Assembly (NCBI GenBank): GCA_934660865.1
Contig: CAKUIA010000026.1
Location: forward strand, 1-13,879
Source: an uncultured Opitutales bacterium
GTDB lineage: Bacteria; Verrucomicrobiota; Verrucomicrobiia; Opitutales; Intestinicryptomonadaceae
Length of the DNA stretch: 13,879 nt
Direction of reading: 5' to 3'
Below the pieces are notes generated by a model, which saw only the letters and a program-made list of their open reading frames with translations, made no database searches and had not been told where the DNA came from. The position numbers and the translations under genes are program-made. How positions within the stretch are numbered: the first letter of the stretch is position 1; every line of letters starts with the position of its first letter. Positions 1-13,879 of the stretch are shown one piece after another.

Positions 1-107
1 CGTAGAATGCGGAATAAAACTATGAAAAACAAATTACAAAAAAAACCTTATTCCACAACCTTTGGGGTTGACCCAAAAATGGGACATATAGATTATTAAC
101 AACTTAC

Positions 108-144
108 AAAAAAACGCCGCAAGCCACAAGCCTACGGCGTTTTT
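108..144 (-). terminator. Putative rho-independent terminator downstream of the tmRNA gene (hairpin usable on either strand)
   Basis: Inverted repeat aaaaacgccg (110-119) / cggcgttttt (135-144) with a 15-nt loop. On the minus strand the stem is followed by a 7-U run (A-run 108-114 on +). It lies about 95 nt beyond the tmRNA 3' CCA. The GC core of the stem is only 5 bp and the loop is large, so this is weak. Confidence 0.35.
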
Positions 145-236
145 CAGATAAAACTATTCTCTTTGGTGTTGCCTCACTTAAAAACGTTCCACACGAAAAA
201 ACAATTTTATAAATACATGATAATCAACACAAAAAA

Positions 237-588
237 TGGTGGAGATGGCGGGAGTTGAACCCGCGTCCTAAGGACTTTCATAAACGCCGTCTACATGCTT
301 AGTTTGCTTTATTGTTTCGATTTGCGCTTCGAGGCAAACACCCTTCGCATCTCTACCGCATTGTTGTTTGCGCGGGCACCCCAACGCGAAAAAGCGCCCG
401 TACTTTTCCCGATGTCGACGCTCGTTTCCGTTATCGGGAGTCGCGGAACGAACGTGTCGCTTAATTAAGCGGCAATAGCGTAATCTTCGCCATTTATATA
501 GTTTGTCGATACATTTTTACGGAGCCGAGTATCATCTCCGACATGCGAACGAATATTACGATTCTCAGTCGAATTCCGGAACATCCCC
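237..588 (-). ncRNA. ssrA: tmRNA (transfer-messenger RNA, SsrA), 352 nt
   Basis: The minus strand begins GGGGATGTTCCGGAATTCGACTGAGAATCG and ends GGACGCGGGTTCAACTCCCGCCATCTCCACCA. This gives a tRNA-Ala-like acceptor stem (5' GGGGAUG pairs with CAUCUCC, including the G3:U wobble), a T-arm GGGTTCAACTCCC and an encoded CCA. An internal tag frame ends ...GAA GAT TAC GCT ATT GCC GCT TAA. Confidence 0.93.
465..491 (-). other. tmRNA tag-peptide reading frame, probable tag (A)GEDYAIAA then stop
   Basis: Minus strand reads GGC GAA GAT TAC GCT ATT GCC GCT TAA, giving G-E-D-Y-A-I-A-A-stop. This matches the usual ...xxYA(L/I)AA degradation-tag ending. The resume codon is inferred; it could begin one codon earlier at AAT. 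Confidence 0.55.
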
Positions 589-709
589 GTTATCCGTGCA
601 ATATTTGTTCTGCCCAACATTATATCGTACTTGTCAAGGGACGTTTTAAATTGTTTTTTGACGCAATTTTTTACTTTACCAAGCTTAATTGTTTTTTTGA
701 TGAATGGTG

Positions 710-739
710 TTGACTTTTAGGGCTTTTTGTGTATGTTTG
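710..739 (+). promoter_or_regulatory. Putative promoter for the PFOR gene
   Basis: TTGACT (710-715), a 16-nt spacer, then TATGTT (732-737). The same stretch, TATGTTTG (732-739), also fits the Bacteroidetes-type -7 motif TAnnTTTG. It sits about 45 nt upstream of the ATG at 783. Motif reading only. Confidence 0.3.
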
Positions 740-782
740 GGCACAAAATTTTAATATCACAAAGAACACTAAAAGATAGATT

Positions 783-3700
783 ATGAAAAATAAGAATAGC
801 GTAATTACCGATGCGAACGAAGCGGTAGCTTCGGTCGCTTTTCGAGTTAGCGAAACTATTGCTATTTACCCCATAACGCCGTCCTCGCCTATGGCAGAGT
901 TCTGCGAAGAATGGGCCGTAAAGGGCAAGAAAAACATTTGGGGCTTAACACCCGATATTTCCCAGCTACAGAGCGAAGGCGGTGTTTCGGGTGCCGTTCA
1001 CGGCGCGCTTAACACGGGCACTTTAATGACTTCGTTTACGGCCAGCCAGGGCCTGCTTTTGATGATTCCGAACATGTACAAAATAGCGGGCGAACTTACC
1101 AGCTTCGTACTTCACGTTTCGGCAAGGGCTTTGGCTTCGCACGGCTTGTCTATTTTCGGCGACCAGGGCGACGTTATGGCATGCCGCCAAACGGGCTTTG
1201 CAATGCTTTGCTCGAACAGTGTTCAGGAAGCGCACGATATGGCCATGATTGCCCATGCCGCCACCCTCGAAAGCAGAGTTCCGTTCATTCACTTCTTCGA
1301 CGGCTTTAGAACCTCGCACGAAATCAACACCTACGAAATGATTTCCGACGAAGTAGTAGAACAGATGATTCCCTACGAAAAGGTTATAGAGCACCGCCAG
1401 CGTGCCCTTAGCCCCGAAAAGCCCTTTATCAGAGGCACGGCCCAAAATCCCGACGTATTTTTCCAGTCTATCGAAGCGAGAAATCCCTTCTACGACAAGT
1501 GCCCCGCCATTGTTCAGGCGCAGATGGACAAGTTCGCAAAATTGACGGGCCGCCAATACCACGTTTACGAATATGTCGGCGCAGCCGACGCCGAACAGGT
1601 TGTTGTAATTATGGGTTCGGGCGCCGAAACTGTTGAAGAAACCGTAAAATACCTGAACGCCAAAGGCGAAAAATTCGGCGTATTAAAGGTTCATTTGTAC
1701 AGGCCTTTCGACGTAAAAATGTTTGTAGACCAGCTGCCCAAAACCGCAAAAACCATTGTTGTTATGGACAGAACACGCGAACAGGGCTCGGCTGCAGAAC
1801 CCCTTTTCCTGGACGTTGCAACCGCAATTTCGCAGGCACGCTCGCAGGGTATCTGCCAAAAGTCGTTCGACCCGTCCATTATCGGCGGCGTATACGGCTT
1901 GGGCTCTAAAGAATTTGTACCCGCAATGGTTAAGGCGATTTTCGAAAACGCAAAAAGCGCAAACCCGAAACCCCGCTTTACCGTTGGCATTAACGACGAC
2001 GTTACCCACAGGTCTTTGCCCTACGACGAATCTTTCGACCTCGAAAGCGACAAGGTTTTGCGTGCCGTATTCTTCGGCTTGGGTTCCGACGGTACTGTTG
2101 GCGCAAACAAGAACACCATTAAAATTATCGGTAAGGAAACCCCCAACTATGCACAGGCCTACTTTGTGTACGACTCCAAAAAGAGCGGCGGCATAACGGT
2201 TTCGCACTTGCGTTTCGGCCCCGAAGAAATCAAGGCGCCCTACCTTATCGGTTCGGCCCAGTTTGTGGGCGTTCACCAGTTCTCGTTTATGGAAAAGCTC
2301 GACGTGCTTAAATGCGCGGCCGAAGGCGCGGTATTCCTGCTAAACTCCATTCACGACGCAAACACTGTTTGGAACTACCTTAACAAAGACGTTCAAAAGA
2401 CCATTATCGACAAAAAGCTTAAGTTCTATGTAATAGACGCCTACAAGGTTGCTGGCGAAATGGGCATGGGCGGCCGCATTAACACCATAATGCAAACTTG
2501 CTACTTCGCAATTTCGGGCGTATTGCCCGCCGACGAAGCCATAGCAAAAATCAAGGCTTCCATCGAAAAGACCTACGGCAAGAAAGGCCCCGAAGTTGTC
2601 AAGAAGAACTTTGCCGCTGTAGATGCTTCGGTTTCGAACCTGCAAAAGGTTGAAGTTCCCGCCGCAGTTTCGGCAACCGAAGGCTTTAAGCCCACGGTTT
2701 CCGACAAGGCTCCCGACTTTGTAAAGAACGTAACCGCAGTTATGATGAGAAACGAAGGCGACAGCCTCCCCGTTTCGGCAATGCCTGTAGACGGCACATG
2801 GCCCTCGGCCACTACAAAGTGGGAAAAGCGCAACATTGCGTTGTTCGTTCCCGCGTGGAACCCCGCTGCCTGCATACAGTGCGGCAAGTGCTCGGAAATT
2901 TGCCCCCACGGCGCAATCCGCACAAAGGCATATCCCGAAGAACTGCTTAAAGACGCTCCCGCAACATTCAAGAGCACAAAATTCCGCTCGAAGGATTTTG
3001 CAAACTGCGCCTTTACGGTGCAAGTTGCGGTTGAAGACTGCTCCGGTTGCGGTTTGTGCGTAAGCGTATGCCCCGCAAAAGACAAGGCAGACCCCTCAAA
3101 GAAGGCCATAAATATGACCGAGCAAGAACCCATACGCGAAGCCGAAGCCAAGAACTTCGAATTCTTTATGAACTTGCCCAACCCCGACAGAACAAAGCTT
3201 GGCAACCTGCCCAAAGACGTGCAGTTGCGCCAGCCCCTGTTCGAATTTTCGGGCGCATGTGCAGGCTGCGGCGAAACTCCGTATGTAAAAATGCTTACCC
3301 AGTTGTTCGGCGACAGGCTTTTGGTTGCAAATGCAACGGGCTGCTCTTCTATTTACAGCGGCAACTTGCCCACAACCCCCTACTGCACCAACCCCGAAGG
3401 CAGGGGTCCGGCATGGGCAAACTCGTTGTTCGAAGACAACGCGGAATTCGGTTTCGGCTACAGGCAGTCGTTAGACGTTAAAGAAGCATTTGCAAAAGAC
3501 TTGCTTACAAAGTTTGCCTCCAAGTTTGGCGACGACTTTGTAAACGAAATTGTAAACGCCGACCAAAGCACCGAAGCCGGCATAATTAAGCAGCGCGAAA
3601 GAGTTGCGGCCCTCAAAGAAAAGTTGGCCTTAGACAACTCGAAAGAAGCTATGCTTTTGAAACCCATTGCCGACGACCTCGTTAAAAAGAGCGTTTGGAT

Positions 3701-4325
3701 AATCGGCGGCGACGGCTGGGCATACGATATCGGCTACGGCGGCTTAGACCACGTTTTGGCAAGCGGCAAGAATGTAAACGTTCTTGTTTTGGATACCGAA
3801 GTATACTCGAATACGGGCGGTCAGATGAGCAAATCTACACCTATTGGCGCGGTTGCAAAATTCGCTTCCAAGGGCAAATCTATGCCCAAGAAGAATCTCG
3901 GCTTGTTGGCTATGGACTACGGCAATGTATATGTTGCCCAAGTTTCGATGGGTGCAAAAGACGCGCAGGTTGTAAAAGCCTTCACCGAAGCAAATTCGTA
4001 CGAAGGCCCCTCGCTGATTATCGCATACAGCCACTGTATCTCGCACGGCTACAACTTGGTAAACGGCCCCGACCAGCAAAAGAAAGCGGTAGAATCGGGT
4101 TATTGGCCCTTGTTCAGATTCGACCCCAGACTAAGAGGCGAAGGCAAAAACCCCTTCATGCTCGATTGCGCAGATCCCAAGATTCCCGTAACCGACTACA
4201 TGATGGCCGAAAACCGCTTCAAGATGTTGCAAAGGTCTAATCCCGAAAGAGCTGCATTGCTTGCAAAAGAAGCTCAGGAATTTGTGGATTACCGCTGGGC
4301 AAAGTACAAGAAGTTGGCCGAATAG
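783..4325 (+). CDS. nifJ: Pyruvate:ferredoxin (flavodoxin) oxidoreductase, single-polypeptide PFOR
   Basis: 1180 aa is the typical length for a fused PFOR. The N-terminus is the diagnostic MKNK..DANEAVASVAFRVSETIAIYPITPSSPMAE pyrimidine-binding region. There are two 4Fe-4S ferredoxin motifs, CIQCGKCSEICP (Cys codon at 2871) and CSGCGLCVSVCP. The ACAGCGETPY atypical cluster region and the TPP-binding motif GGDGWAYDIGYGGLDH..LDTEVYSNTGGQ are present. The C-terminal YWPLFRFDPR is typical of the family. Confidence 0.97.
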   Translation: MKNKNSVITDANEAVASVAFRVSETIAIYPITPSSPMAEFCEEWAVKGKKNIWGLTPDISQLQSEGGVSGAVHGALNTGTLMTSFTASQGLLLMIPNMYKIAGELTSFVLHVSARALASHGLSIFGDQGDVMACRQTGFAMLCSNSVQEAHDMAMIAHAATLESRVPFIHFFDGFRTSHEINTYEMISDEVVEQMIPYEKVIEHRQRALSPEKPFIRGTAQNPDVFFQSIEARNPFYDKCPAIVQAQMDKFAKLTGRQYHVYEYVGAADAEQVVVIMGSGAETVEETVKYLNAKGEKFGVLKVHLYRPFDVKMFVDQLPKTAKTIVVMDRTREQGSAAEPLFLDVATAISQARSQGICQKSFDPSIIGGVYGLGSKEFVPAMVKAIFENAKSANPKPRFTVGINDDVTHRSLPYDESFDLESDKVLRAVFFGLGSDGTVGANKNTIKIIGKETPNYAQAYFVYDSKKSGGITVSHLRFGPEEIKAPYLIGSAQFVGVHQFSFMEKLDVLKCAAEGAVFLLNSIHDANTVWNYLNKDVQKTIIDKKLKFYVIDAYKVAGEMGMGGRINTIMQTCYFAISGVLPADEAIAKIKASIEKTYGKKGPEVVKKNFAAVDASVSNLQKVEVPAAVSATEGFKPTVSDKAPDFVKNVTAVMMRNEGDSLPVSAMPVDGTWPSATTKWEKRNIALFVPAWNPAACIQCGKCSEICPHGAIRTKAYPEELLKDAPATFKSTKFRSKDFANCAFTVQVAVEDCSGCGLCVSVCPAKDKADPSKKAINMTEQEPIREAEAKNFEFFMNLPNPDRTKLGNLPKDVQLRQPLFEFSGACAGCGETPYVKMLTQLFGDRLLVANATGCSSIYSGNLPTTPYCTNPEGRGPAWANSLFEDNAEFGFGYRQSLDVKEAFAKDLLTKFASKFGDDFVNEIVNADQSTEAGIIKQRERVAALKEKLALDNSKEAMLLKPIADDLVKKSVWIIGGDGWAYDIGYGGLDHVLASGKNVNVLVLDTEVYSNTGGQMSKSTPIGAVAKFASKGKSMPKKNLGLLAMDYGNVYVAQVSMGAKDAQVVKAFTEANSYEGPSLIIAYSHCISHGYNLVNGPDQQKKAVESGYWPLFRFDPRLRGEGKNPFMLDCADPKIPVTDYMMAENRFKMLQRSNPERAALLAKEAQEFVDYRWAKYKKLAE

Positions 4326-4353
4326 TTTCCGTACATTCTTGACAAATAATTGG

Positions 4354-4384
4354 GAGCTGCCCGAAAAGGGGCAGCTCTTTTTTT
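4354..4384 (+). terminator. Rho-independent terminator of the PFOR gene
   Basis: Perfect 9-bp GC-rich stem gagctgccc (4354-4362) / gggcagctc (4369-4377), a 6-nt loop gaaaag, then a T7 run (4378-4384). It starts 29 nt after the stop codon. Confidence 0.85.
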
Positions 4385-4584
4385 ACAGATAATTAACTGC
4401 CGCAAACAGATAAAATTTACCTAGCAACCCACAATGCAGATTTTGCCAAAGTAAAATATAAATTACGCACAAAGCGTGTGTAAAATTGCTATATTGCAAA
4501 AAGGCGTAATTGGTAAGATTGGGCAACTTTTAGCCGCTATTGTATATTTACAATTTTTGTGTTTTCCGATAATATTTAAGAAAA

Positions 4585-5454
4585 ATGAAGGACATAGAGA
4601 AAATGGAATATACAACACTAAATAACGGAGTAAAAATGCCGATGGAGGGCTTCGGCGTATTTCAGGTTAGCGATGCCGCGGTATGCGAACGCGCGGTATT
4701 AGACGCCGTCGAAGAAGGCTATCGCAACATAGACACGGCTGCGGCCTACTTTAACGAAGAGGCCGTAGGCAACGCCATACGCAAATGCGGCGTTGCGCGC
4801 AAAGAGCTTTTTATAACAACAAAACTTTGGATTCAAGACGCAGGCTACGAAAACGCAAAAAAGGCGTTCGAAACGTCTATGGAAAAACTGGGGCTGGATT
4901 ATTTGGACTTATACCTTATCCACCAGCCTTTCGGAGACTATTACGGCTCTTGGCGCGCAATGGAAGAACTGCATAAAAAGGGCCTAATACGCGCAATAGG
5001 CGTAAGCAATTTCCAGCCGGACCGCCTTGCCGACCTATGCGCCAATGCCGAAATTAAACCCGCCGTAAACCAGATAGAGCTGCACCCCTTCTACGCCCAG
5101 CCAAACGCGCTAAAATATATGCAATCCGAAAAAATCTGCCCCGAGGCCTGGGGGCCTTTGGCCGAGGGCAAACACGGGATTTTCTCGCACCCCGTGCTTG
5201 CGCAAATAGGCAAAAAATACGGCAAAAGCGCGGCTCAAGTTGCGTTAAGGTGGAACACCCAGCGCGGCGTTGTTATAATTCCAAAATCCACCCACCGCGA
5301 ACGCATAAGGGAAAACCTAAATATTTGGGATTTTCGCCTTAACGACGCCGAAATGGCGGAAATTTCGGCTCTCGATTTGGGGCATAGCGAAATTATAGAC
5401 CACCGAAACCCCGAAACCGTAAAATGGCTTAACAGCCACAAAATACACGAATAA
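4585..5454 (+). CDS. Aldo/keto reductase (DkgA / YtbE / YvgN-like NADPH-dependent glyoxal or diketogluconate reductase type)
   Basis: The AKR catalytic tetrad context is readable: [11 protein letters not shown] (Asp, Tyr), ITTKLW (Lys), LYLIHQP (His). The C-terminal cofactor motif [14 protein letters not shown] and the family motif [16 protein letters not shown] are also present. The second in-frame ATG at 4603 (MEYTTLNNG...) gives a more typical family N-terminus and may be the real start. Confidence 0.9.
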
Positions 5455-5470
5455 CAGCGCCAAACATAAC

Positions 5471-5512
5471 AAAAAAAGGCGAAGCATTGGTTTTGCGTGC
5501 TTCGCTTTTTTT
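5471..5512. terminator. Bidirectional rho-independent terminator shared by the convergent reductase gene and the TIR-TPR gene
   Basis: Stem gcgaagca (5479-5486) / tgcttcgc (5498-5505) with an 11-nt loop. It is flanked by A7 (5471-5477) on the left and T7 (5506-5512) on the right, so either strand reads stem plus U-run. It sits between the stop at 5454 (+) and the stop at 5542 (-). Confidence 0.75.
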
Positions 5513-5541
5513 GGCATTAAACTGCGGCGGCATTAAAAAAT

Positions 5542-8532
5542 TTATTTTCCGCCCAGCTTGGATATGCGTTTTTCAAGCTCTAGCGCTCTTTCTGAGCCTG
5601 CGCCGAAATTTTTTACGATTATCGGAAGCGCCGCCTTGCAATATTGCCCGGCCGATTTAAAATCGCCGCCCTTTTCTAAAATGTCGGCTAAAATCAGGCA
5701 GTTTTCGGCTATTAAAACGTGGTTTGCATGCAGCATTTTCATTCGTATGTCCAAAGCTTTTTTGTAGGCGTCTACGGCTTCGGCCATTTTCCCGCTCTCC
5801 GAATATGCGTCGCCTATATTGCACAGTGTAAAGGCTATGTCGGGGTTTGCAGTCCCGAACATTTCGGTTTGTATTTTAAGCGCCTTTTCGAAAAACTCCA
5901 TTGCCTGCAAAGCTTTTCCCGTTCGCAGCAAAACGGCTCCCCTATTGTTGTATGCCAGCGCAACGCTCGGGTGGTTTTCGCCGAGCGTTTGTTTAAGGAT
6001 TTCAAGCGCGCGCACGCAATAGCGCTCGGCCTGCTCGGGTTTGCCCATCTTAAGATACGCCGAAGAAATGTTGCCGCATGCTATTGCAACATCTGAATGG
6101 GTTTTGCCCAAAGACTTTTCCTGAATTGCCAGGGCCCTTTTGTAGTAGTCTACCGCGGCTTTGTAGTTTTTTTCCAGCTCCATTACCAAGCCCAAATTGT
6201 TTAGCGAGCGCGCCAAAAGCGGGTGCGACATTCCCAAATTTTTCCTTCTTGCCTCGTAGGCTATTTGGTTGTGGTGCCTGCAGTTTTTCGAATCGGTAAG
6301 GTGGTAGTAAACGCTGCCCAAATTGCTGTGCGTAATGGCGGTTATTGTGTGGCTTTCCCCGAAAATCCTTTCCTGAATTGCCAGGGCTTTTTGGTATTCT
6401 TCGGCGGCTTTTTGATATTCGCCGCGGCGAAAGTAAAGGCTGCCTATGTTGTTTAGCGTGCGCGCTTTGTCGGCAAGGCCTGCGTCGCCGAATTTTTCCT
6501 CTATAGACAGCGCCTCCGAATAGCTTTTAAACGCCGAGCGCCACTTGCTTTGCCTGTTGTATACCCCGCCAATATCGTCGTGCGAGCGCGCGGTTTCAAG
6601 GTGCAAATTGCCGTAAAATTTAAGGCGTATTTCAAGCGCCTTTTGGTAGGCTGCAATGGCTGCTGCAAAATTTTCGTTTTCAAGGTTTGCGTCGCCTATA
6701 TTCGAGTATGTAACCGCCAAATCGGGGTGGCCGTCTTTGTGTATTGCCTGTTGTATTTTAAGGGCCAAATCGAAACATTCCAAAGCTTTTGCATATTCTG
6801 CAAGCTTTATGTACACGCAACCGATGTTGTTTTCAAGCCTTGCAATGTCGGGGTGCTTTGCGCCGAATGCCGCGGTTTCCAACTTTATTGCCTTTTGGTA
6901 GCTTTCAAGCGAGCTTTTATATTCGCCCATATGCTCAAGCACGGTGCCCATATTATTCAGTGTAAGCGCAATGTCGGGGTGGTTTTCGGGCAGATATTTT
7001 TCCTGAATGTCAAGCGCCTTAAAATGGTATTTTTTGGCGGCGGCAAAGTCGCCCAGTTTGTCGAGCTGAACGCCTATATTGTTTAGCGTTCTTGCAAGTT
7101 CCGATTTTTTTGTTTCGGGGTTTTGCCTTTGTATTTTCTCGGCTTTTTCCATCAGCCTTGCCGCGGTTTTGTAGTGGCCCATTGCGCTTTCCGACAAAGC
7201 TATGTTCGAATACGATATTGCAACCGCAGGGTGCAAAGCTCCCAAAATTTTCGCCTGCAAATCTAGCGCTTCTTTGTAGAAATTTACGGCAAGTTCGTAT
7301 TCGCCCCTGTTAAAGCAGACAAGCCCCATATTGTTTAAAATGCCCGCCCGCGAAAGCGCGTCTTCGTCGGAATTGCCGCTGTAGCAGTCCATAGCCTTTT
7401 GTATAAGCCGCTTTGCCTTGTCGTATTCGCCGTACGAATTGAAAATTGCGCCTATTGTGCGGTAGACGGTTGCGCGCACTTTGGGGTGTTTAATCTTGTC
7501 GATATCGGCCAACGCCGCCGACATAGCCTCGAGCACGGTTGTATTTTTGTTGCCCTTTTGAGACGGGTCGCTCGACATTAAAATATCGCGCAGAAAGTCG
7601 AAAGTTTGCGAGGTTTGCTTTGATTGGTCTACCGCCCTTGCCTCCGAAATTCTGGCCTGTTTTTCCGATTCTACCGCGCGTTTTTCCGACGCGCGGGCGG
7701 CGGCTTCGGAAGCGCGCGCTACAGCCTCCGACTTCTTTGCAAGCTTTTCCGACTCTATTGCCCTTGCCTCCGAAACGCGCGCAATTTTCTCCGATTCTAT
7801 TGCGTGCTTTTCGGATATCCTGGCGGCGGCTTCCGACTTTACGGCCTTCGCCTCCGAAATTTTGGCTGCGGCCTCCGAAACGCTTGCCTTGTGCTCGGCG
7901 TGCAACGCCCACATTGTAAGAACGGCAAAGCCCGCAACCGCGCTAAACGCGTAAAAGAGTATTATCTGCAAAATTCTGCGTTTTTCGCGCTGAAAACGGT
8001 TCGATATTTTTGCGCGCGAAACTTTCAGCATATACGATACAACCTGCACAAAGCCGTTTTCCCAACCCTGCTTTTGGGTTTCGTCGTCGGACTTGCGCAT
8101 GTCGGGCAGGTTGCGCGATTTTATGTCTTCGCCGTATTCGGCAAGCGCGGGGCAAAGAACGGTGTCGATATTGTCGCCCTCCAAAAATACGGGAATAACG
8201 CGCGAAATATCGTTGTTGTGGGTTTTAAGGAAATATTTTATTTCCTCGTTGCACCATTTAGACGCCGCAAAATTCTTCGAGCACAGCGCAATAACGTAGC
8301 GCGATTCGCCAAGCGAGCGCTCTATCTCCTTCTTAAAACTTTCGTCGGTAGACTCAAGTTCGTTTTTGTCGAGAAATATATTGCGAATGTATACGGGGTG
8401 CCACGGCCTGTTTTCGGGCAAAACAAGTTTTGCGGGGTAGCGGAATTTTTCGATTTGCCTTTGCAGCCACGCAGCGGCGGTCTTGTCGCGGCGCGAGTAG
8501 CTTATAAACGCATAGTATTTTGTTTGCGCCAT
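5542..8532 (-). CDS. TIR domain - single TM helix - heptad coiled coil - 15x TPR protein (996 aa)
   Basis: N-terminus YYAFISYSRRDKTAAAWL ... LDKNEL ... VIALCSKNFAASKWCNEEIKYF ... VIPVFLEG reads as a TIR_2-type domain. One 24-aa hydrophobic segment (ILQIILFYAFSAVAGFAVLTMWAL) follows, then 12 SExxAxx heptads and 15 tandem 42-aa kinesin-light-chain-type TPR units (consensus ..LNNIG.VY...GEY..A...Y.KAL.IQEK..G..HPD.A). No Walker A (GxxxxGK[ST]) or NB-ARC-like region is visible anywhere. Confidence 0.9.
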   Translation of the reverse strand: MAQTKYYAFISYSRRDKTAAAWLQRQIEKFRYPAKLVLPENRPWHPVYIRNIFLDKNELESTDESFKKEIERSLGESRYVIALCSKNFAASKWCNEEIKYFLKTHNNDISRVIPVFLEGDNIDTVLCPALAEYGEDIKSRNLPDMRKSDDETQKQGWENGFVQVVSYMLKVSRAKISNRFQREKRRILQIILFYAFSAVAGFAVLTMWALHAEHKASVSEAAAKISEAKAVKSEAAARISEKHAIESEKIARVSEARAIESEKLAKKSEAVARASEAAARASEKRAVESEKQARISEARAVDQSKQTSQTFDFLRDILMSSDPSQKGNKNTTVLEAMSAALADIDKIKHPKVRATVYRTIGAIFNSYGEYDKAKRLIQKAMDCYSGNSDEDALSRAGILNNMGLVCFNRGEYELAVNFYKEALDLQAKILGALHPAVAISYSNIALSESAMGHYKTAARLMEKAEKIQRQNPETKKSELARTLNNIGVQLDKLGDFAAAKKYHFKALDIQEKYLPENHPDIALTLNNMGTVLEHMGEYKSSLESYQKAIKLETAAFGAKHPDIARLENNIGCVYIKLAEYAKALECFDLALKIQQAIHKDGHPDLAVTYSNIGDANLENENFAAAIAAYQKALEIRLKFYGNLHLETARSHDDIGGVYNRQSKWRSAFKSYSEALSIEEKFGDAGLADKARTLNNIGSLYFRRGEYQKAAEEYQKALAIQERIFGESHTITAITHSNLGSVYYHLTDSKNCRHHNQIAYEARRKNLGMSHPLLARSLNNLGLVMELEKNYKAAVDYYKRALAIQEKSLGKTHSDVAIACGNISSAYLKMGKPEQAERYCVRALEILKQTLGENHPSVALAYNNRGAVLLRTGKALQAMEFFEKALKIQTEMFGTANPDIAFTLCNIGDAYSESGKMAEAVDAYKKALDIRMKMLHANHVLIAENCLILADILEKGGDFKSAGQYCKAALPIIVKNFGAGSERALELEKRISKLGGK
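5584..7476 (-). repeat. Array of 15 x 42-aa TPR units (KLC / TPR_12-like), aa ~353-983
   Basis: I could lay out 15 consecutive 42-residue units by eye. Each ends in ...HP(D/S/A)(I/V/L)A or a variant and restarts with (R/L/I)(T/S)(L/Y)(N/S)N(I/M/L)G. The copies are diverged at DNA level. Confidence 0.85.
7627..7878 (-). repeat. 12 tandem 21-nt / 7-aa repeats (SExxAxx) encoding a predicted coiled-coil stalk
   Basis: Protein reads SEAAAKI SEAKAVK SEAAARI SEKHAIE SEKIARV SEARAIE SEKLAKK SEAVARA SEAAARA SEKRAVE SEKQARI SEARAVD. The DNA shows ctccga/ttccga/ttcgga recurring every 21 nt. The periodicity also generates the long stop-free alternative-frame ORFs in the track. Confidence 0.9.
7903..7974 (-). 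other. Predicted transmembrane helix (aa 187-210)
   Basis: 24 consecutive hydrophobic or small residues, ILQIILFYAFSAVAGFAVLTMWAL. The 15 residues before it (SRAKISNRFQREKRR) carry 7 K/R; the 15 after it (HAEHKASVSEAAAKI) carry 2. By the positive-inside rule the N-terminal TIR is cytoplasmic. No prediction program was run. Confidence 0.7.
8128..8520 (-). other. TIR domain (aa ~5-135) of the 996-aa protein
   Basis: The FISYSRRD beta-A/AA-loop motif, the SKWCNEEI motif (equivalent to the plant and bacterial SxWCxxEL motif carrying the NADase glutamate; E97 codon at 8242-8244) and the VIPVFL strand. Domain ends are approximate. Confidence 0.8.
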
Positions 8533-8533
8533 G

Positions 8534-11500
8534 CTATTTGCGGTGTCTTAAAAACGCAGCCGCAAGCAACGCGGCAAAGGCCAAAATTGCCGCAGTTTCG
8601 GCGGGTTCGGGAACAACGGTACTAAACCTTATTTCAAGCGAGTTTTCCTCCAAATAAAAATCCCATTGGCCGGTATACGGCTTGTCGTTAAGGCAAAGGG
8701 TTATGTTAAAGTCCTTCTCCAAATCGGCAAGCGACGCCATATTGCAATCGTCTGTCCATTCCATAATGGTAAAGCCGAATTCCGATTGCGGAAGCTGCGT
8801 GATGTCTACTATAATATAGCCGCCGTCGAGAACAAACGAAGCCCCCTCGGAAAACGAAATGGGAACAATGCCGCTGTCGGGATTTACTACAATGTGAATG
8901 CCGCCGTTTTCGGAAAGCGTAAGCGATTTTCCGTTTAGAACTTCAAGTTGCGCGTCTTCCAAAAGCTTTAGCTTGGCGTTGGATACCACTGCATTGTCGT
9001 AGTATATTTTTGCCGAAACGGCGCTTTGCCCCGCTTTTGGCCTGTGTGCAATTATGTCTATGGAAGTTGCCGAATTTGAAGCCGAAAAATTGCGTATCCT
9101 GCCGTCGGCATACAACACGTTTGTAAGCGAAGAAGCAGTGTCTACGCAGTAGTCCGAAACATTCGACCCCCTAAAATCCACCCTCTCTAAAATTGCTCCG
9201 TTAAAGACCATTCCTTTTGTATCGCTTACATCTTTCGAGTTTTCGATAACCTTAACCGACACATTTTGAAAGTTTACGTTTTTTAGAGTTGTTCTTTGTC
9301 CATAATAATCATCAGGATCACAATAAAACCCCTTTGCGCCGCCCGAAACACCCGTAGAAATTGCGGTAAAACTTGCTCCGCTAAAATCTACATTGCTAAT
9401 AATAGCTACCGAATCTACGTAAAAGCCAGTGGCCCATGACATATCTTGCGATTCAGAAGTTGCATAAAATGTAGCGTTTCTAAAATCCGTATTTGTTATG
9501 TTTCTACCAGAATAAAATGCGCTACTTTGAGCAAGGTAGTCTTTACCAACCGCGCTTGTTTTAAATACTGCCCCGCTAAAATCGCAATCGGTTATGTCTT
9601 TTCTTCTCATCAAAAAGCCAATACTTTGTGCATGGTAGTTAGAATTTGATGTTGCTGTAAATTCAGCATTTGCAAAATTAGAATTGATTATACTTTCGTC
9701 CGAATAAAAACCGTATGCACCTGCGGCATAAAAATTAGTTCCCGAAGTTTCATTGGAACTTACATTTATTTTTGCCCCTACAAACGATGCGTTTACTATA
9801 TCGTTTCCCACAACGCTAAGTCCGTATGAATATGCCCCGTTCTTTGCATTTGTTTCGGTATAAATTTCAACACCGTCGGCCAAAATTATGCCGTCGCCGC
9901 TTTTGTTCGACAAATCAATACCGTATGCATCTGCCGAACCGTTTGAATTTTCGGCCGAAGTATATATTTTTGCATTGTTTGCGCAAAAGGCATAACCGCT
10001 TTTAGAACCGTTGTTTAGTTGCGTATCGGCAAGGTTTATGCCGCGCGAAATAATGTCGCCGCTGCCCAAGCCGTTAGAGGCGCTAACTTCTATAACAGTG
10101 TTGCCAAAGTTTACATTTTCCAGCGTAGAGCCGCCGAAATTTGCGCCAATAAACACCGTAGGGTCTGCCGAAGTAGAATCGTTTACGCCGCTTGCAATAA
10201 CGCTAGAGCCGCTAAAGTCGGCATTGGTAAGCTTGCCCTTATACATTGTAATTGCGCAAGACTGCGTTTGCTTGTCGTAGCTGTTTAAAGCCGAAGTGTT
10301 GTCGGAAACAAAAGTTGCATTTTTTGCCGACAGGTTTTTTATGTCGGCACCGGCCATAGCCAAAGCGTAGGCTTCGTTTTCGGCCTGCGAATACACGCTT
10401 GCATTGTCCAGCGTTATGCCGTTTATATTCGAGCGCGAAAGAAACAACCCTATAGACGTAGCGCCCTGCGTTTTGGAAATTTGCGAGCCTGCAAGGTTTA
10501 AATTGCCAACATTTGCGCCCTCGGCAAAACCCAACGCAAATATGCCGTTTTTATCGGCAACGCTGGCCGAAACTTTTTGCGCATTCATATCCGAAACGGT
10601 TTTGCCGTTAAAATTCCAGCCGCTAACGTCCAGCCCCGAAATATTCAACCCGCGTATTGTGCCGTCGCCATAGTCGCGAGTAGAATAGAATTGCTCTTTC
10701 GTTAAATTCGAACCCGCAAAGTTTGCCCCCGACACTGCAAGACCGTTTAAGTCGGCACCTTTCAAATTTGCGCCGCCAAAATTTGCGTTTGTTGCATCGG
10801 CATTGGCAAGTATTGCGTTGGTAAAATCCGCGTAAGAGGCGTTTGTGTTTTTAAGATTGGCGTTTGTCAGGTTTGCCGAGTTAAAATCGGTTTTGTCTAG
10901 TTGCGAATTTTCGAAGTTTGTGCCTACGGCTTTTGTGCTGCGAAATTTTACACCCGAAAATGTTTTGTCGGACAAATCCTGCCCGCTTATGTCTTTGCCG
11001 CTGTAGTCTAAAGTTGTTTCTTCGGTGATAATTATTGTGTTGTCGGGCAGTTGCGCCCCGTCAGAATCGCCGCCTGCGCCAGCAGAATTGGAACCGCCCG
11101 CCGAGGCCTCCTGTCCCCCGGATTTATTGTCGGCAGAAGTGTCGGTGTTTTTAGCCACATCGTTTGCAGATACATTTGAATCGGATTTTACCGTGCTAGA
11201 CGATGTGGTTTTGCCAGTCGAATCCTTTTCGGTGGTAGTTGTAGTAGAAGTTCCGTCGGGATTGTTTACATAGTCGGTCTTTTTTGTGCTGCCGTCGGAA
11301 CGCGTGTCGGTTATCGAAGCCTCTTTAAGCGTAGTTTCCACTTTTTCGGAGGGCAGCTGCGAAACGTCTTTGCCGCCTATTGTACCCGAAGACGAACCGT
11401 CTTTTACAACCAAGTCAACTTTCGATGTATTGCCCGAGTCGCCGCTTCCAGTTTTAGTTTCGCCCGAAACGCTCGTAGTTCCGTCGGGGTTTGCCTTTAT

Positions 11501-11989
11501 AACAAGGTCGGCCTCTACGGTTTTGTCGTCGCCGGTAAATTTAATCGAAACGGTTGTATTGTCTTCCTTGTCTACCGAAGAAACTACGTCCAAAATTACG
11601 TCGCCTTCGGCGCCGTCGGCGTCGCCCACACCGTCGGCAAGAACTTTAGAAACCGCGTCTAAAACGTCTTTGTTGCCCGAGTCGCCCAAAGAGTCTCCCA
11701 AAGCCGAAACCAAAGCGTCGGCCTGCTTTGCCATAGAGCCCGTGTCGCCCTCAAGCGGCGGCGTTAAAACCAGTTGCGCGTCCGACGATTTTGCGGATTT
11801 GCCCAATTTTACGCGTACGCGGCCGTATTTTGTATCGAAAGAATAGTCGCACGACTGCAACACAATTTCCTCTCCCGAAAATTTCGCCAAAAGATTTATT
11901 GCGCCCGCCTGAACGTCGGCCTGGGCAAAAAGCCCGCAGCCCGTAAACAACATTGCAAACAGCGTTATCGAAAAAAATATTTTTTTCAT
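8534..11989 (-). CDS. Large exported PEP-CTERM protein with pentapeptide repeats and a beta-helix-like repeat array (~1151 aa from the ATG at 11989)
   Basis: The ORF is open from 12073, but Met29 (ATG at 11989) starts a classic signal peptide, MKKIFFSITLFAMLFTGCGLFAQA|D. Using it removes a 41-nt overlap with the upstream gene. The C-terminus VVPEPAETAAILAFAALLAAAFLRHRK has the PEP motif, a hydrophobic helix and a basic tail, which is the PEP-CTERM architecture. Internal pentapeptide repeats and a long degenerate repeat region are listed separately. Confidence 0.85.
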   Translation of the reverse strand: MKKIFFSITLFAMLFTGCGLFAQADVQAGAINLLAKFSGEEIVLQSCDYSFDTKYGRVRVKLGKSAKSSDAQLVLTPPLEGDTGSMAKQADALVSALGDSLGDSGNKDVLDAVSKVLADGVGDADGAEGDVILDVVSSVDKEDNTTVSIKFTGDDKTVEADLVIKANPDGTTSVSGETKTGSGDSGNTSKVDLVVKDGSSSGTIGGKDVSQLPSEKVETTLKEASITDTRSDGSTKKTDYVNNPDGTSTTTTTEKDSTGKTTSSSTVKSDSNVSANDVAKNTDTSADNKSGGQEASAGGSNSAGAGGDSDGAQLPDNTIIITEETTLDYSGKDISGQDLSDKTFSGVKFRSTKAVGTNFENSQLDKTDFNSANLTNANLKNTNASYADFTNAILANADATNANFGGANLKGADLNGLAVSGANFAGSNLTKEQFYSTRDYGDGTIRGLNISGLDVSGWNFNGKTVSDMNAQKVSASVADKNGIFALGFAEGANVGNLNLAGSQISKTQGATSIGLFLSRSNINGITLDNASVYSQAENEAYALAMAGADIKNLSAKNATFVSDNTSALNSYDKQTQSCAITMYKGKLTNADFSGSSVIASGVNDSTSADPTVFIGANFGGSTLENVNFGNTVIEVSASNGLGSGDIISRGINLADTQLNNGSKSGYAFCANNAKIYTSAENSNGSADAYGIDLSNKSGDGIILADGVEIYTETNAKNGAYSYGLSVVGNDIVNASFVGAKINVSSNETSGTNFYAAGAYGFYSDESIINSNFANAEFTATSNSNYHAQSIGFLMRRKDITDCDFSGAVFKTSAVGKDYLAQSSAFYSGRNITNTDFRNATFYATSESQDMSWATGFYVDSVAIISNVDFSGASFTAISTGVSGGAKGFYCDPDDYYGQRTTLKNVNFQNVSVKVIENSKDVSDTKGMVFNGAILERVDFRGSNVSDYCVDTASSLTNVLYADGRIRNFSASNSATSIDIIAHRPKAGQSAVSAKIYYDNAVVSNAKLKLLEDAQLEVLNGKSLTLSENGGIHIVVNPDSGIVPISFSEGASFVLDGGYIIVDITQLPQSEFGFTIMEWTDDCNMASLADLEKDFNITLCLNDKPYTGQWDFYLEENSLEIRFSTVVPEPAETAAILAFAALLAAAFLRHRK
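8537..8617 (-). other. PEP-CTERM sorting signal
   Basis: V-P-E-P (codons at 8603-8614), then AETAAILAFAALLAAAFL (hydrophobic) and RHRK (basic) directly before the stop at 8534-8536. Confidence 0.85.
9149..10441 (-). repeat. About 12 degenerate ~32-aa repeats of an unrecognised type (I-x-N-x-D/N-F-x-x-A-x-F-x-x-x-S ... A-x-G-F-Y)
   Basis: Clearest copies: IINSNFANAEFTATSNSNYHAQSIGFLMRRKD / ITDCDFSGAVFKTSAVGKDYLAQSSAFYSGRN / ITNTDFRNATFYATSESQDMSWATGFYVDSVA / IISNVDFSGASFTAISTGVSGGAKGFY... / LKNVNFQNVSVKVIENSKDVSDTKGMVFNGA / ILERVDFRGSNV. Earlier copies are more degenerate and the boundaries are approximate. Confidence 0.65.
10688..11002 (-). repeat. Canonical pentapeptide-repeat block (A[D/N]LxX type), ~20 pentads
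   Basis: GKDISGQDLSDKTFSGVKFRSTKAVGTNFENSQLDKTDFNSANLTNANLKNTNASYADFTNAILANADATNANFGGANLKGADLNGLAVSGANFAGSNLTKEQF shows 5-residue periodicity with central L/F and A/N/D/S at i-2. Confidence 0.85.
11054..11491 (-). other. Low-complexity S/T/D/G/K-rich linker (long-ORF aa ~195-340)
   Basis: Runs such as NPDGTTSVSGETKTGSGDSGNTSK, NPDGTSTTTTTEKDSTGKTTSSSTVKSDSN and GGQEASAGGSNSAGAGGDSDG. NPDGT(T/S) occurs twice. Likely a disordered or glycosylatable spacer. Confidence 0.7.
11918..11989 (-). other. Signal peptide (Sec/SPI AQA|D site; an alternative lipobox-like FTG|C lies upstream)
   Basis: MKK n-region, hydrophobic core IFFSITLFAMLF, then both FTGC (lipobox-like, with F at -3) and AQA|D (AxA signal peptidase I site). 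Which site is used cannot be decided from sequence. Confidence 0.7.
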
Positions 11990-12032
11990 ACGGTTTCTAT
12001 CTATAAAGCTTTTTTCGGGTAATAATGCCGAG

Positions 12033-13508
12033 CTAAAGCGACTGTTTAGACGCCAGTATTTTGTTGATTTCAAAAACTATATCCACATTGTCGCGGTCGT
12101 ATTTTTCGTAGTCTTCGCCGAACATTTCCGAAACCGGCTTAAGCTCGTCGAACGGAACAAGGCAGGTATGCAACTTTTTTGCGGTGTCTTTGTTTTCAAC
12201 CATCATCTCGCCCGAAAGATTTAATTTGTCCCAACCGCGCGAATATAGATAGGCGCACCAGCGCAGGTGCTCGGTTCTGGTAAGCGTGTCGTACTTGGCT
12301 GGATTGTCGCGCAGCCACGCCCTGTAGGCGTTTCCGTCGGCAAATTTTCCGAAAATTTCGCGCCCTATCATTTTCACAAAACTGTAGTTAAAATCGGCAA
12401 CCGAAATGTTCGACCCCCTTTCAAAGTCGGTCATTCCTATCCAATTTTTCATTTTCATAGAATCCAGTTTTGTTTTGTTGTAATAGTCGTTTACAAAACG
12501 CCCGCCCATTGTAAAGGCGTCGGCCATTATGGCGTCTACACTATATACGCTTTTAAGACTTCCGAATGGCTGCACATTAGGCATGGAACTTTCGTCTAAA
12601 TGGGTAGTTTCCAAAAACGGCGCAACGGTTGTTTCGGCGTTGAACGACTCTACAAGGCGCTCCTGCACGCTCTTTGCAAAATCAAAAGTCGCTTTTTCGT
12701 CGTCTAGGTCTACCACAACCAAATCGTATTTGCCGAAATCCAGCTTTTGGACAAGCTCAAGCGGGTTTACCTCTATTTGCTTAAACTCCACATCGCCGAT
12801 AAAGCCCGAAAACTTTTCGCAAAAGGCCCTGCATTTTGCCGCTACCGAAACGTCGAAAACGTCAACAAAAAACCTTGCCCCCTCAAACCTGCCCTGCTCG
12901 TAGGTTTTAAGCAATGCCTCGCGGGAATTTTTTGTAAAGCCAACAACGGCCACTTTAATGTCTTTCTTTGCCCTAAGCGTGTCGCTGTCGAACTGCATTG
13001 CGTCTACAGGCCTGAATTTTTTTGAAAGCGTATACGCCGCAAGCTTCGACGGATTTACAAGCTTTACATTAAAAGTTGCAAGAATGTCGTTTTGGCACGA
13101 AATTAAAAAACGCTCTATTTCCTCCCAGTTGGGGGCTATGTACATTGAAAAATCGTCGAACGAAGCCCCGCATTTTTTTGCGGCTTTCATAATCTGCGAG
13201 GAAAGCGAGGCGTTGCGGTCGGCATTTTTAGAAATGAAAAAGAACTCGTTTTTGCCGTCCGAAAAAAAGCGTTTTATTTGGCGGTCCGAAAAAACGAATA
13301 TGTCCGAATCGAATTCTACGGTTTTTACTTTTACGCGATTTTTAAAATCGGCCCATTGAACATCGCAAAACGACTGCTTGCTGCCCAAAAACAAAATTTT
13401 TGCCGTAGAACTCGACCTACCGTATATGTCGGCGGCAAGCATTCTGTGTTCGGGATTATTGCCGAAAAAAACGTATTCGGTATCGGAATTATAAAAGGCG
13501 TTTTTCAT
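12033..13508 (-). CDS. RyR-domain protein with two degenerate Rossmann/RCK-N-like modules (491 aa)
   Basis: The C-terminal third matches the bacterial RyR-domain pattern: WIGMTDFERGSNISVADFNYSFVKMIG (W..L....SN...AD....K..G), then RTEHLRWCAYLYSRGW...KDTAKKLHTCLVPFDELKPVSEMFGEDYEKYDRDNV (EH.RW......GW....kd...K.HPcLVP(Y/F)DEL.....K..DRd.V). The N-terminal two thirds contain two strand-loop-helix starts, YVFFGNNPEHRMLAADIY and KVAVVGFTKNSREALLKTY. These resemble TrkA-N/RCK Rossmann folds but lack GxGxxG. No signal peptide or TM segment. Confidence 0.85.
   Translation of the reverse strand: MKNAFYNSDTEYVFFGNNPEHRMLAADIYGRSSSTAKILFLGSKQSFCDVQWADFKNRVKVKTVEFDSDIFVFSDRQIKRFFSDGKNEFFFISKNADRNASLSSQIMKAAKKCGASFDDFSMYIAPNWEEIERFLISCQNDILATFNVKLVNPSKLAAYTLSKKFRPVDAMQFDSDTLRAKKDIKVAVVGFTKNSREALLKTYEQGRFEGARFFVDVFDVSVAAKCRAFCEKFSGFIGDVEFKQIEVNPLELVQKLDFGKYDLVVVDLDDEKATFDFAKSVQERLVESFNAETTVAPFLETTHLDESSMPNVQPFGSLKSVYSVDAIMADAFTMGGRFVNDYYNKTKLDSMKMKNWIGMTDFERGSNISVADFNYSFVKMIGREIFGKFADGNAYRAWLRDNPAKYDTLTRTEHLRWCAYLYSRGWDKLNLSGEMMVENKDTAKKLHTCLVPFDELKPVSEMFGEDYEKYDRDNVDIVFEINKILASKQSL
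12069..12536 (-). other. RyR (ryanodine-receptor repeat)-like domain region, aa ~325-480
   Basis: Motifs as listed for the CDS. EHLRW is encoded at about 12258-12272 (ccagcgcaggtgctc on +). Boundaries are approximate. Confidence 0.7.
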
Positions 13509-13557
13509 ATTATTCGGGAACGATGGCTGTTATTTTAGCTGATAACGCGGCAAAACG

Positions 13558-13645
13558 TGAAAGAATGGAGTTTTCCCCAACCGGGCAAACCCCGCCATAT
13601 TGCATGCAACAAGTTGCATGGCACATACAAGGATTCATTCTTACA
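13558..13645 (-). promoter_or_regulatory. Nested inverted repeats in the leader/upstream region of the operon (possible structured 5' UTR or operator cluster)
   Basis: Outer 10-bp inverted repeat tgaaagaatg (13558-13567) / cattcttaca (13636-13645), 9 of 10 complementary. It encloses the small hairpin cggg-caaac-cccg (13582-13594) and an 18-bp palindrome catgcaac-aa-gttgcatg (13603-13620). It lies 50-137 nt upstream of the ATG at 13508. Confidence 0.35.
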
Positions 13646-13657
13646 AGACACCCATGT

Positions 13658-13676
13658 ATAGTATTAAGAATACGAT
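13658..13676. repeat. Left copy of a 19-nt inverted repeat pair (atagtattaagaatacgat)
   Basis: 18 of 19 nt identical to the reverse complement of 13825-13843. Each copy is also internally palindromic (cgtatt-N3-aatacg). Confidence 0.7.
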
Positions 13677-13824
13677 ACTTGGCTAGCATTCCCCAACAGG
13701 CTTATTCTCAATATGATAAGAACATATCGTTAAAAATACACAAAACGCCAATCTCTAAAACACATAAGTACAAATCAATTCCCTTCTTTTTTTATTTCAA
13801 GCAGTTGAAAAATTAAATTTGACA

Positions 13825-13843
13825 ATCGTATTCTTAATACGAT
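13825..13843. repeat. Right copy of the 19-nt inverted repeat pair (atcgtattcttaatacgat)
   Basis: Its reverse complement atcgtattaagaatacgat matches 13658-13676 at 18 of 19 positions. The asymmetric central triplet (ctt versus aag) is inverted between the copies. TTGACA (13819-13824) abuts it on the + strand. Confidence 0.7.
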
Positions 13844-13879
13844 GAACACGGAATACATTTCAGCTAGAAAAATTTTGAC

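Follow-up and report, generated by a model that had tools for sequence, protein, structure and literature searches.

Does a bacterial protein that carries a ryanodine receptor (RyR) domain read a nucleotide made by a TIR protein encoded beside it? The question is raised by a locus of an uncultured Opitutales bacterium (Verrucomicrobiota; GenBank assembly GCA_934660865.1), of which we analysed a stretch of 13,879 nucleotides, positions 1 to 13,879 of the forward strand of contig CAKUIA010000026.1, referred to below as the window. The gene in question (12033..13508, minus strand), the first of its operon, encodes a soluble protein of 491 aa, hereafter the target, in which a tandem Rossmann/RCK-like body is followed by a C-terminal RyR domain of the Repeat12 (R12) type. 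An initial annotation of this DNA had suggested that the protein may serve as a receptor for a TIR-made nucleotide, and this idea is favoured, at the level of sequence and predicted structure, by the domain assignments and TIR co-occurrence described here. With slightly better than even confidence, we propose a Thoeris-like module, in which a membrane TIR protein would make an ADP-ribose-derived signal, the RyR pocket of the RCK-RyR protein would read it, and the output across the family would be RCK-controlled ion flux.

Domain composition of the RCK-RyR protein

The RyR domain occupies residues 326-491 (12036..12533, minus strand), with a core matching canonical RyR at residues 400-477. The signature motifs quoted in the initial annotation are all present: EHLRW at residues 413-417, GW at 425-426, KKLHTCLVPFDEL at 444-456, and YDRDNV at 470-475, preceded on the N-terminal side of EHLRW by W356, S366-N367, A371-D372, and G382. 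The full-length protein had no match at E<0.1 to the Pfam RyR model PF02026, and its C-terminal 127 aa matched at E=0.018 with 15.7 bits, under the gathering score of 27.4 bits. Scans of the full-length protein with Pfam, NCBIfam, and PADLOC gave nothing usable; a weak PADLOC match to PDC-M36B (E=0.0016) was disregarded. Among 48 sampled relatives, PF02026 matched eight at E<=0.01, the best at 2.2e-5. A single-sequence phmmer search of the PDB gave marginal RyR matches only. A profile built from 18 close homologs matched RyR entries alone in the same database, and one built from 48 diverse members placed RyR on top, with the B. thetaiotaomicron/human RyR chimera 6uhi at 5e-8; on the same scale, the 48-member family profile found the stand-alone B. 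thetaiotaomicron RyR protein 3nrt at 1e-3. When the C-terminal alignment was compared by hhalign with an alignment of 11 stand-alone bacterial RyR proteins and two phage RyR proteins, RyR Tad included, residues 400-477 were matched with 96.4% probability and E=1.1e-9.

The AlphaFold2 model of residues 326-491, with a mean predicted local distance difference test (pLDDT) score of 92, has the helical fold of RyR repeats with a hairpin before the CLVPYDEL segment. A Foldseek search of the PDB with this model retrieved almost exclusively RyR Repeat12 and bacterial RyR structures, at weak E-values (best 0.057), probabilities up to 0.99, TM-scores of about 0.5, and 23-25% identity. To judge by their titles, the matched entries include animal R12 (RyR3 Repeat12) structures with ATP, ADP, or AMP-PCP. 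In BFVD the top 13 matches were all phage RyR-domain proteins (best 6e-4, TM-scores 0.53/0.60, 148-167 aligned columns). A tblastn search of GenBank phages with the RyR core gave only weak matches (E 2e-3 to 0.7), to proteins named 'Ca2+ release channel domain', which served solely as a lead to RyR Tad. The PDB matches aligned 180-205 columns of the C-terminal region to R12, which posed the question of a tandem pseudo-dimer of Repeat1 and Repeat2. Since single-domain phage proteins of 110-190 aa in BFVD cover the 148-167 columns mentioned above, the simpler reading of the models is that the C-terminal 165 aa would form one extended RyR domain and not such a pseudo-dimer.

The pocket of this domain can be compared with phage proteins of known ligand. 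RyR Tad (Pectobacterium phage CB1 gp68) binds 3' cyclic ADP-ribose (3'cADPR), 2'cADPR, and cADPR via H129/W132, K147/H154, and K170/D171 (10.64898/2026.06.04.730250), and in RyDEP (mycobacteriophage DyoEdafos gp78) the residues involved are H75, W78, H100, and D117 (Lopez Rivera et al. 2026 preprint, PMC13232231). The predicted ligand-contact codons of the target lie within 12096..12269 of the minus strand: H414 (12269-12267), W417 (12260-12258), K440 (12191-12189), H447 (12170-12168), and D471 (12098-12096). RyR Tad H129, W132, K147, and H154 align to H414, W417, K440, and H447, respectively, and the Asp of the canonical YDR motif aligns to D471; for the latter the hhalign and HMMER alignments were used, the position of RyR Tad K170/D171 in the MAFFT alignment being disturbed by an insertion. 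All five positions are conserved, in 35-48 of the 48 family members.

Phage RyR-domain proteins bind or cleave the TIR products 2'cADPR, 3'cADPR, and cADPR (PMC13232231; 10.64898/2026.06.04.730250); for phage RyR domains, what the initial annotation had supposed has since proved correct. Phage homologs other than RyDEP act as nanomolar sponges, and most of those with the same residues are non-catalytic (PMC13232231). The RyR proteins described in these two 2026 preprints are phage ones only (PMC13232231; 10.64898/2026.06.04.730250). With phage members and the animal R12 domain both binding adenine nucleotides, the initial description of RyR as a functional orphan has to be abandoned. In animals, the regulation of RyR by cADPR has been disputed for decades, and its binding site is unmapped.

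The RCK part of the protein consists of two domains. Domain 1 spans approximately residues 8-170 (12999..13487, minus strand) according to the AlphaFold2 secondary structure, Foldseek, and the column profile; its glycine motif is degenerate, reading G16-N-N-P-E-H in the target and GxNxxS across the whole family. Domain 2, approximately residues 181-325 (12534..12968, minus strand), is delimited by AlphaFold2, Foldseek, and TrkA_N Pfam matches in relatives; its loop reads G190-F-T-K-N-S in the target, whereas the column profile shows G-F-G-x-x-G kept in the wider family. In the full-length AlphaFold2 model (pLDDT 88, predicted TM-score 0.89) both are beta-alpha-beta domains of the Rossmann type. 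Its best Foldseek matches are tandem-RCK proteins, namely TrkA (4g65, 9e-7) and the gating rings of CASTOR (6o7c) and BK (3u6n), at TM-scores of only 0.42-0.46, and TrkA_N matches were found in 12 of the 48 sampled relatives (best 1.4e-11). The initial annotation had noted two Rossmann/RCK-N-like starts lacking GxGxxG, in agreement with these models and with the degeneracy of both motifs; the hhalign and PDB profile comparisons and the Foldseek searches together uphold its RyR and RCK assignments.

Close relatives of the target number only 18 in a set of 5.8 billion proteins, and a profile search of 1.84 billion representatives found 4,137 relatives, 356 of these below 1e-30. Most members are about 620 aa long, with an additional N-terminal part of about 130 aa that holds 3-4 hydrophobic helices. 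By its sequence, the target, with a few others, is a predicted soluble offshoot, devoid of the membrane segment, of a family whose members are mostly embedded in the membrane. The family is represented in Opitutales, Bacteroidales/Rikenellaceae, Lachnospiraceae, Oscillospiraceae, Butyrivibrio, and one metagenome-assembled genome of Treponemataceae, mainly among gut and rumen anaerobes. A phage-borne family like that of RyDEP was considered and rejected, no relatives having been found on IMG/VR viral contigs. Two members (P0070 and P0073, 1,140-1,151 aa; L053 9206-12628) have, after RyR, an extra transmembrane (TM) helix and Peptidase_C1 (papain-like) and Lectin_like domains, which would point to other outputs, or to extensions outside the cytoplasm, in part of the lineages.

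The operon and its conserved link to TIR proteins

On the minus strand of the window three genes are closely packed: the target (ATG at 13508, stop at 12035-12033), a gene for a giant pentapeptide-repeat protein, and a TIR-TPR gene, with intergenic gaps of 43 nt and 1 nt, respectively. A sigma-70-like promoter match, TTCACG-18-TAAAAT (13532..13561, minus strand; a consensus match only), lies 24 nt 5' of the target ATG, in an AT-rich intergenic region that measures 370 bp and is non-coding. Given the small gaps and this promoter match, the target looks like the first of three operon genes. The statement of the initial annotation that RyR and TIR share an operon therefore stands, but a 3.5-kb pentapeptide-repeat gene lies between the two. 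An open reading frame (ORF) of 97 aa on the plus strand (13523-13816) overlaps the putative promoter in the AT-rich region and is probably not a gene. The context of the target is chromosomal; the plus strand of the window carries the housekeeping genes for pyruvate:ferredoxin oxidoreductase (783-4325) and an aldo-keto reductase (4585-5454).

The TIR protein (5542..8532, minus strand) has 996 aa and consists of a TIR domain (residues 1-182; 8532-7987), a TM helix (about residues 187-205; 7974-7918), a coiled linker, and a TPR array (about residues 315-996). Its catalytic Glu is E97 (8244-8242), where WCNEEI aligns to WCLEEL of ROQ1, and its closest solved relatives are the signal-producing TIR domains of plant TIR-NLR proteins. 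The basic stretch RFQREKRR before the TM helix argues for a topology with the TIR domain in the cytoplasm and the repeats outside. Between the TM helix and the TPR array (window positions ~7630-7890, residues ~215-300), degenerate heptad-like repeats of the form 'SE[AK]xA[IRVK]xSE' are seen, probably a coiled-coil stalk; this run was not flagged at the DNA level by Tandem Repeats Finder, and a tandem-repeat search of the TIR and pentapeptide genes yielded nothing relevant.

The RyR-TIR co-occurrence on which the initial annotation had placed its functional hypothesis was borne out by a count over 86 non-redundant loci of the family, numbered here with the prefix L and comprising about 1,121 ORFs, many of them on short contigs. 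The TIR profile found 46 TIR ORFs, distributed over 35 of the 86 loci; 42 of the 46 are on the strand of the family gene and 36 are located at most 2.5 kb away. All ten weak matches that were checked against Pfam proved to be TIR_2. The TIR-linked loci span four phyla, Verrucomicrobiota, Bacteroidota, Bacillota, and a spirochaete. For the background, a survey by Yirmiya et al. gives 81,720 defence-associated TIR proteins among ~600 million proteins (10.64898/2025.12.03.692087). The share of TIR ORFs near family genes (4%) is far above chance, orders of magnitude over this figure, the comparison being a rough one and not a formal test.

Beside the window, the linkage of an RCK-RyR gene to a TIR-TM-TPR gene is found in five Opitutales-type loci whose target homologs are 33-78% identical. 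The order target, pentapeptide giant, and TIR-TM-TPR gene is repeated in L001 (78% identity) and in L004 and L010 (44%); in L008 (56%) the TIR-TPR gene directly follows the target homolog, and in L012 (33%) two TIR genes lie directly downstream. Another locus, L005, ends inside the pentapeptide gene. Nearly all TIR partners share an N-terminal TIR domain of about 180 aa and one strongly hydrophobic helix, followed by a variable C-terminal part made of TPR, Sel1 repeats, WG beta-repeats, or a short tail. By sequence they are membrane-anchored TIR proteins whose sensor would probably lie outside the cytoplasm, a layout that recalls an inverted Toll-like receptor. The TIR-TM-repeat layout was seen in L012, L020, L029, L036, L039, L045, L062, L074, L078, and others.

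Clustering of the neighbouring ORFs showed that the commonest partner is another RyR-domain protein, present in 32 of the 86 loci in two forms. The first, of about 520 aa, combines an Ion_trans_2 pore (3.6e-13), an RCK-like middle part, and an RyR domain that scores above the Pfam threshold (PF02026, 30.2 bits). The canonical K+ selectivity filter TVGYGD is present in these K+-channel-RCK-RyR proteins of 22 loci, and the protein is itself a paralog of the family (E=1e-10 to 1e-20 with the family hidden Markov model, HMM). Examples are L062 9662-11230, L036 6721-8292, L045 4543-6114, and L074 10337-11881. Their genes adjoin the family gene and sometimes also the TIR gene, and three-gene operons of the family gene, the channel gene, and a TIR-TM-TPR gene occur, for example, in L036 and L045. 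The second form is a stand-alone canonical RyR protein of 87-107 aa, of the 3NRT type (L029 9277-9564, L015 11594-11893, L014 6122-6415, L021 2234-2521, L025 11498-11761, L084 11415-11705, and L089 11424-11720). These genes lie a few bases 3' of a TM-RCK-RyR family gene, which gives the solved orphan 3NRT a genomic context. A TIR gene and an RyR/channel partner are found together in 11 of the 86 loci, the RyR/channel partner only in 21, and TIR only in 24.

The pentapeptide-repeat protein between the target and the TIR gene (8534..11989, minus strand) is a giant, secreted protein that probably carries a lipoprotein signal (MKKIFF...LFTGC) and has a PEP-CTERM sorting signal (VPEP...RHRK) at its C-terminus. 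Its reading frame extends back to 12073; translation most likely starts from the ATG at 11989, and the PEP-CTERM end is at 8534. A giant occupies the same position in the Opitutales-type loci L001, L004, L005, and L010. In the Opitutales loci these giants (L001 11077-14709, L004 3952-9819, L010 3580-9240, L005 11490-16583), placed between the RyR-type and TIR genes, are 1,150-1,950 aa long and have a lipoprotein-type signal peptide and a PEP-CTERM sorting signal. Three further pentapeptide/PEP-CTERM genes lie upstream in L001. The putative role of the giant may be that of an extracytoplasmic partner or bait for the TPR domain of the TIR protein.

Two other kinds of neighbours were observed. 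In two different Opitutales-type contexts, L001 and L002 (4715-5716), a tyrosine integrase is encoded upstream of the family gene at a distance of a few kb; L001 also has a YhcG/DUF1016 nuclease-like gene, the two features of this locus being at 1566-2564 and 317-1348. These neighbourhoods hint at a mobile or variable region, in contrast to the housekeeping neighbours in the window. An inosine-uridine nucleoside hydrolase gene (IU_nuc_hydro, 7e-28) is located directly downstream of the family gene in L065 (11257-12252) and in four other Lachnospiraceae loci. XopQ has a nucleoside hydrolase fold. It is reported to cleave 2'cADPR (10.64898/2026.06.15.732069). The neighbour could be another signal-degrading component, or a coincidence.

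A proposed signalling mechanism and its alternatives

The preferred mechanism would operate as follows. The TIR protein of the operon would cross the membrane once, with the TIR domain in the cytoplasm and the TPR array probably facing outward. When triggered, it would turn NAD+ into a signal derived from ADP-ribose, a cADPR isomer being the likeliest. This signal would bind the R12-type pocket formed by H414, W417, K440, H447, and D471, where it would be sensed or possibly cleaved. Binding would then change the conformation or the assembly of the attached TrkA-like tandem-RCK body. Since most members have 3-4 TM helices attached to their RCK body, and the adjacent paralogs a fused TVGYGD pore, we infer ion flux as the output of the family, which would mean membrane depolarisation or loss of K+. 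The target, having no membrane part, would act in trans on a putative membrane partner, as soluble TrkA does. The activation of an effector by a TIR-made ADP-ribose derivative would follow solely by analogy with the complexes of phage RyR domains and cADPR (PMC13232231; 10.64898/2026.06.04.730250).

Several observations weigh against this mechanism. RyR domains in phages can act as sponges or glycosidases, not receptors. The target lacks a TM segment, no channel partner is visible for it, and in the main family no pore signature could be recognised in the stretch of 3-4 TM helices. The dinucleotide-binding loop GxGxxG is absent from both Rossmann domains of the target; a ligand would more likely bind in the RyR pocket than in such degenerate domains. 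Neither a TIR gene nor an RyR/channel partner was found in 30 of the 86 loci, among which so many contigs are short that such absences are weak evidence, and one close subclade (L002, L011) is without TIR. Beyond the TIR and RyR partners, the genes that recur nearby have housekeeping roles (SecDF, radical SAM, P-type ATPase), the loci do not obviously resemble defence islands, and PADLOC and NCBIfam hold no models for the family proteins, with no PADLOC match beyond generic TIR.

That the module serves physiology, and not phage defence, is a reading we regard as unlikely. It would be an envelope-to-cytoplasm signalling or ion-homeostasis system, in which the membrane TIR senses an extracytoplasmic cue via its TPR, Sel1, or WG repeats, in the window perhaps the co-encoded surface pentapeptide protein, and the RyR-RCK protein tunes K+ flux or membrane potential. 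The housekeeping neighbourhoods, devoid of a defence-island signal, speak for it, as do the conserved TIR-TM-repeat topology, the broad and stable presence of the family in gut and rumen anaerobes, and the conservation of a secreted PEP-CTERM partner in the Opitutales operon. However, a constant TIR domain with variable C-terminal repeats is a typical trait of diversifying sensors, phages have RyR-domain proteins as counter-measures, and the experimentally characterised bacterial operons of TIR plus partner in the papers considered here are all anti-phage (10.64898/2025.12.03.692087). Somewhat less probable still is that the RyR domain switches off or buffers the signal: it would cleave a TIR-made cADPR isomer by a His/Asp dyad or sequester it, and so set the threshold or end the signalling, with the effector encoded elsewhere. 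The catalytic dyad of RyDEP, H75 and D117 (PMC13232231), indeed corresponds to the conserved H414 and D471, stand-alone RyR proteins of 90-100 aa, the format of phage sponges, adjoin family genes, and the target lacks an obvious output domain. Yet a sponge or hydrolase needs no tandem-RCK body of 325 aa, no 3-4 TM helices, and no K+ pore attached to it, RyR joined to channel and RCK modules has the arrangement typical of sensor-effectors, and the non-catalytic state of most phage homologs with the same residues (PMC13232231) argues against cleavage.

We give the lowest probability to a pocket that senses ordinary adenine nucleotides (ATP or ADP), or linear ADP-ribose or NAD+ depletion caused by a purely NAD-degrading TIR, with no dedicated cyclic signal. 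NAD(H) and ATP are classical ligands of RCK domains, many bacterial TIR proteins are plain NADases, and the RyR3 Repeat12 structures hold ATP, ADP, or AMP-PCP, all of which would suit such a sensor. Against it, the same residues give phage RyR domains a nanomolar affinity for cADPR isomers (PMC13232231; 10.64898/2026.06.04.730250), and a general energy sensor would not need a tight genetic coupling to TIR.

If the proposed Thoeris-like module is real, host bacterial RyR-domain proteins, including the solved orphan 3NRT type, read or edit TIR-made ADP-ribose signals, TIR (Thoeris-like) signalling gains an ion-channel/RCK class of effectors with a new sensor domain, and the partners of the TIR-TM-extracytoplasmic-repeat type represent a rare case of a transmembrane TIR receptor in bacteria. 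The R12 pocket is shared with animal ryanodine receptors, and a bacterial fusion of K+ channel and R12, tied genetically to a cADPR-type synthase, would offer a simple system in which to ask whether and how cADPR-like molecules gate a channel via this domain. A broader reading, less likely than not, is that these loci are a prokaryotic counterpart, possibly the source, of the animal axis in which cADPR acts on RyR. In this counterpart, TIR receptors with extracytoplasmic TPR, Sel1, or WG sensors would make a cADPR isomer in a Toll-like, outside-in manner; the R12-type pocket would read the isomer and gate RCK-controlled K+ channels, with 3NRT-type proteins as built-in buffers; and the target, soluble and TrkA-like, would couple the same signal to a different partner, perhaps linked to the surface pentapeptide giant.

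Comparison with known systems

No prior description of host RyR-TIR or bacterial K-channel-RyR systems, a combination of Thoeris with TrkA included, was found in the literature. What appears to be new is a large host family of RCK-RyR proteins, accompanied by K-channel-RyR paralogs in adjacent genes and linked genetically to TIR-repeat proteins of the membrane, together with a soluble Opitutales variant whose operon also encodes a giant pentapeptide protein with a PEP-CTERM signal. Among known systems, a close parallel is Thoeris, of which types I-XI are distinguished in the survey (10.64898/2025.12.03.692087). As there, a TIR gene with a catalytic Glu is operonic with a nucleotide-sensor protein fused, in most members, to a membrane or ion-flux module, and variable TIR partners accompany a constant effector family; in contrast to the short ThsB, the TIR proteins described here are long, membrane-anchored TIR-TM-repeat proteins. 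The survey lists 29 putative effector types, and RyR, TrkA, and RCK are not named in its text or in the part of its tables available (10.64898/2025.12.03.692087). Identity of the family with the 'ion channel' effector (ThsK) of type X Thoeris was rejected: a 246-aa multi-TM B. cereus protein (L098 3247-3987), a proxy for this effector inferred from its position beside a type X TIR homolog, had negative bit scores against both family HMMs. A tblastn search of plasmids with type X TIR domains gave type II (Macro) systems only.

With TrkA (4G65), MthK, and the CASTOR and BK gating rings the target shares two tandem Rossmann-type RCK-like domains; it is soluble like TrkA, and paralogs adjoining family genes are fused to a K+ pore with the TVGYGD filter. 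It differs from them in the loss of GxGxxG from either domain, in the C-terminal RyR, and in that no TrkH/KtrB partner gene is in view near it. The RyR protein of B. thetaiotaomicron (3NRT/4N05/6UAG) and animal Repeat12 belong to the same domain family and have in common with the target the signature H..W...GW...K..H.CLVPYDEL...YDR, whereas the target is multidomain and its RyR domain scores below the Pfam gathering score. The 3NRT-like proteins are neighbours of the target family, not its orthologs.

Finally, the phage proteins RyDEP and RyR Tad are similar to the target in their R12-type RyR fold, in agreement with the exclusively phage RyR proteins at the top of the BFVD matches, and the His-x-x-Trp, Lys...His, and Asp residues are kept in the target. 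Compared with the alignment of phage and stand-alone RyR proteins, the target has insertions of ~6 and ~7 residues, in the hairpin and before the last helix, as seen by hhalign. It is a host-encoded, multidomain protein of 491 aa with no IMG/VR relative, in which RyR is fused to a tandem-RCK body of 325 aa, whereas the phage proteins stand alone or carry a small N-terminal domain. Moreover, the phage proteins are used against TIR, whereas the RyR domain described here is encoded in one operon with it.

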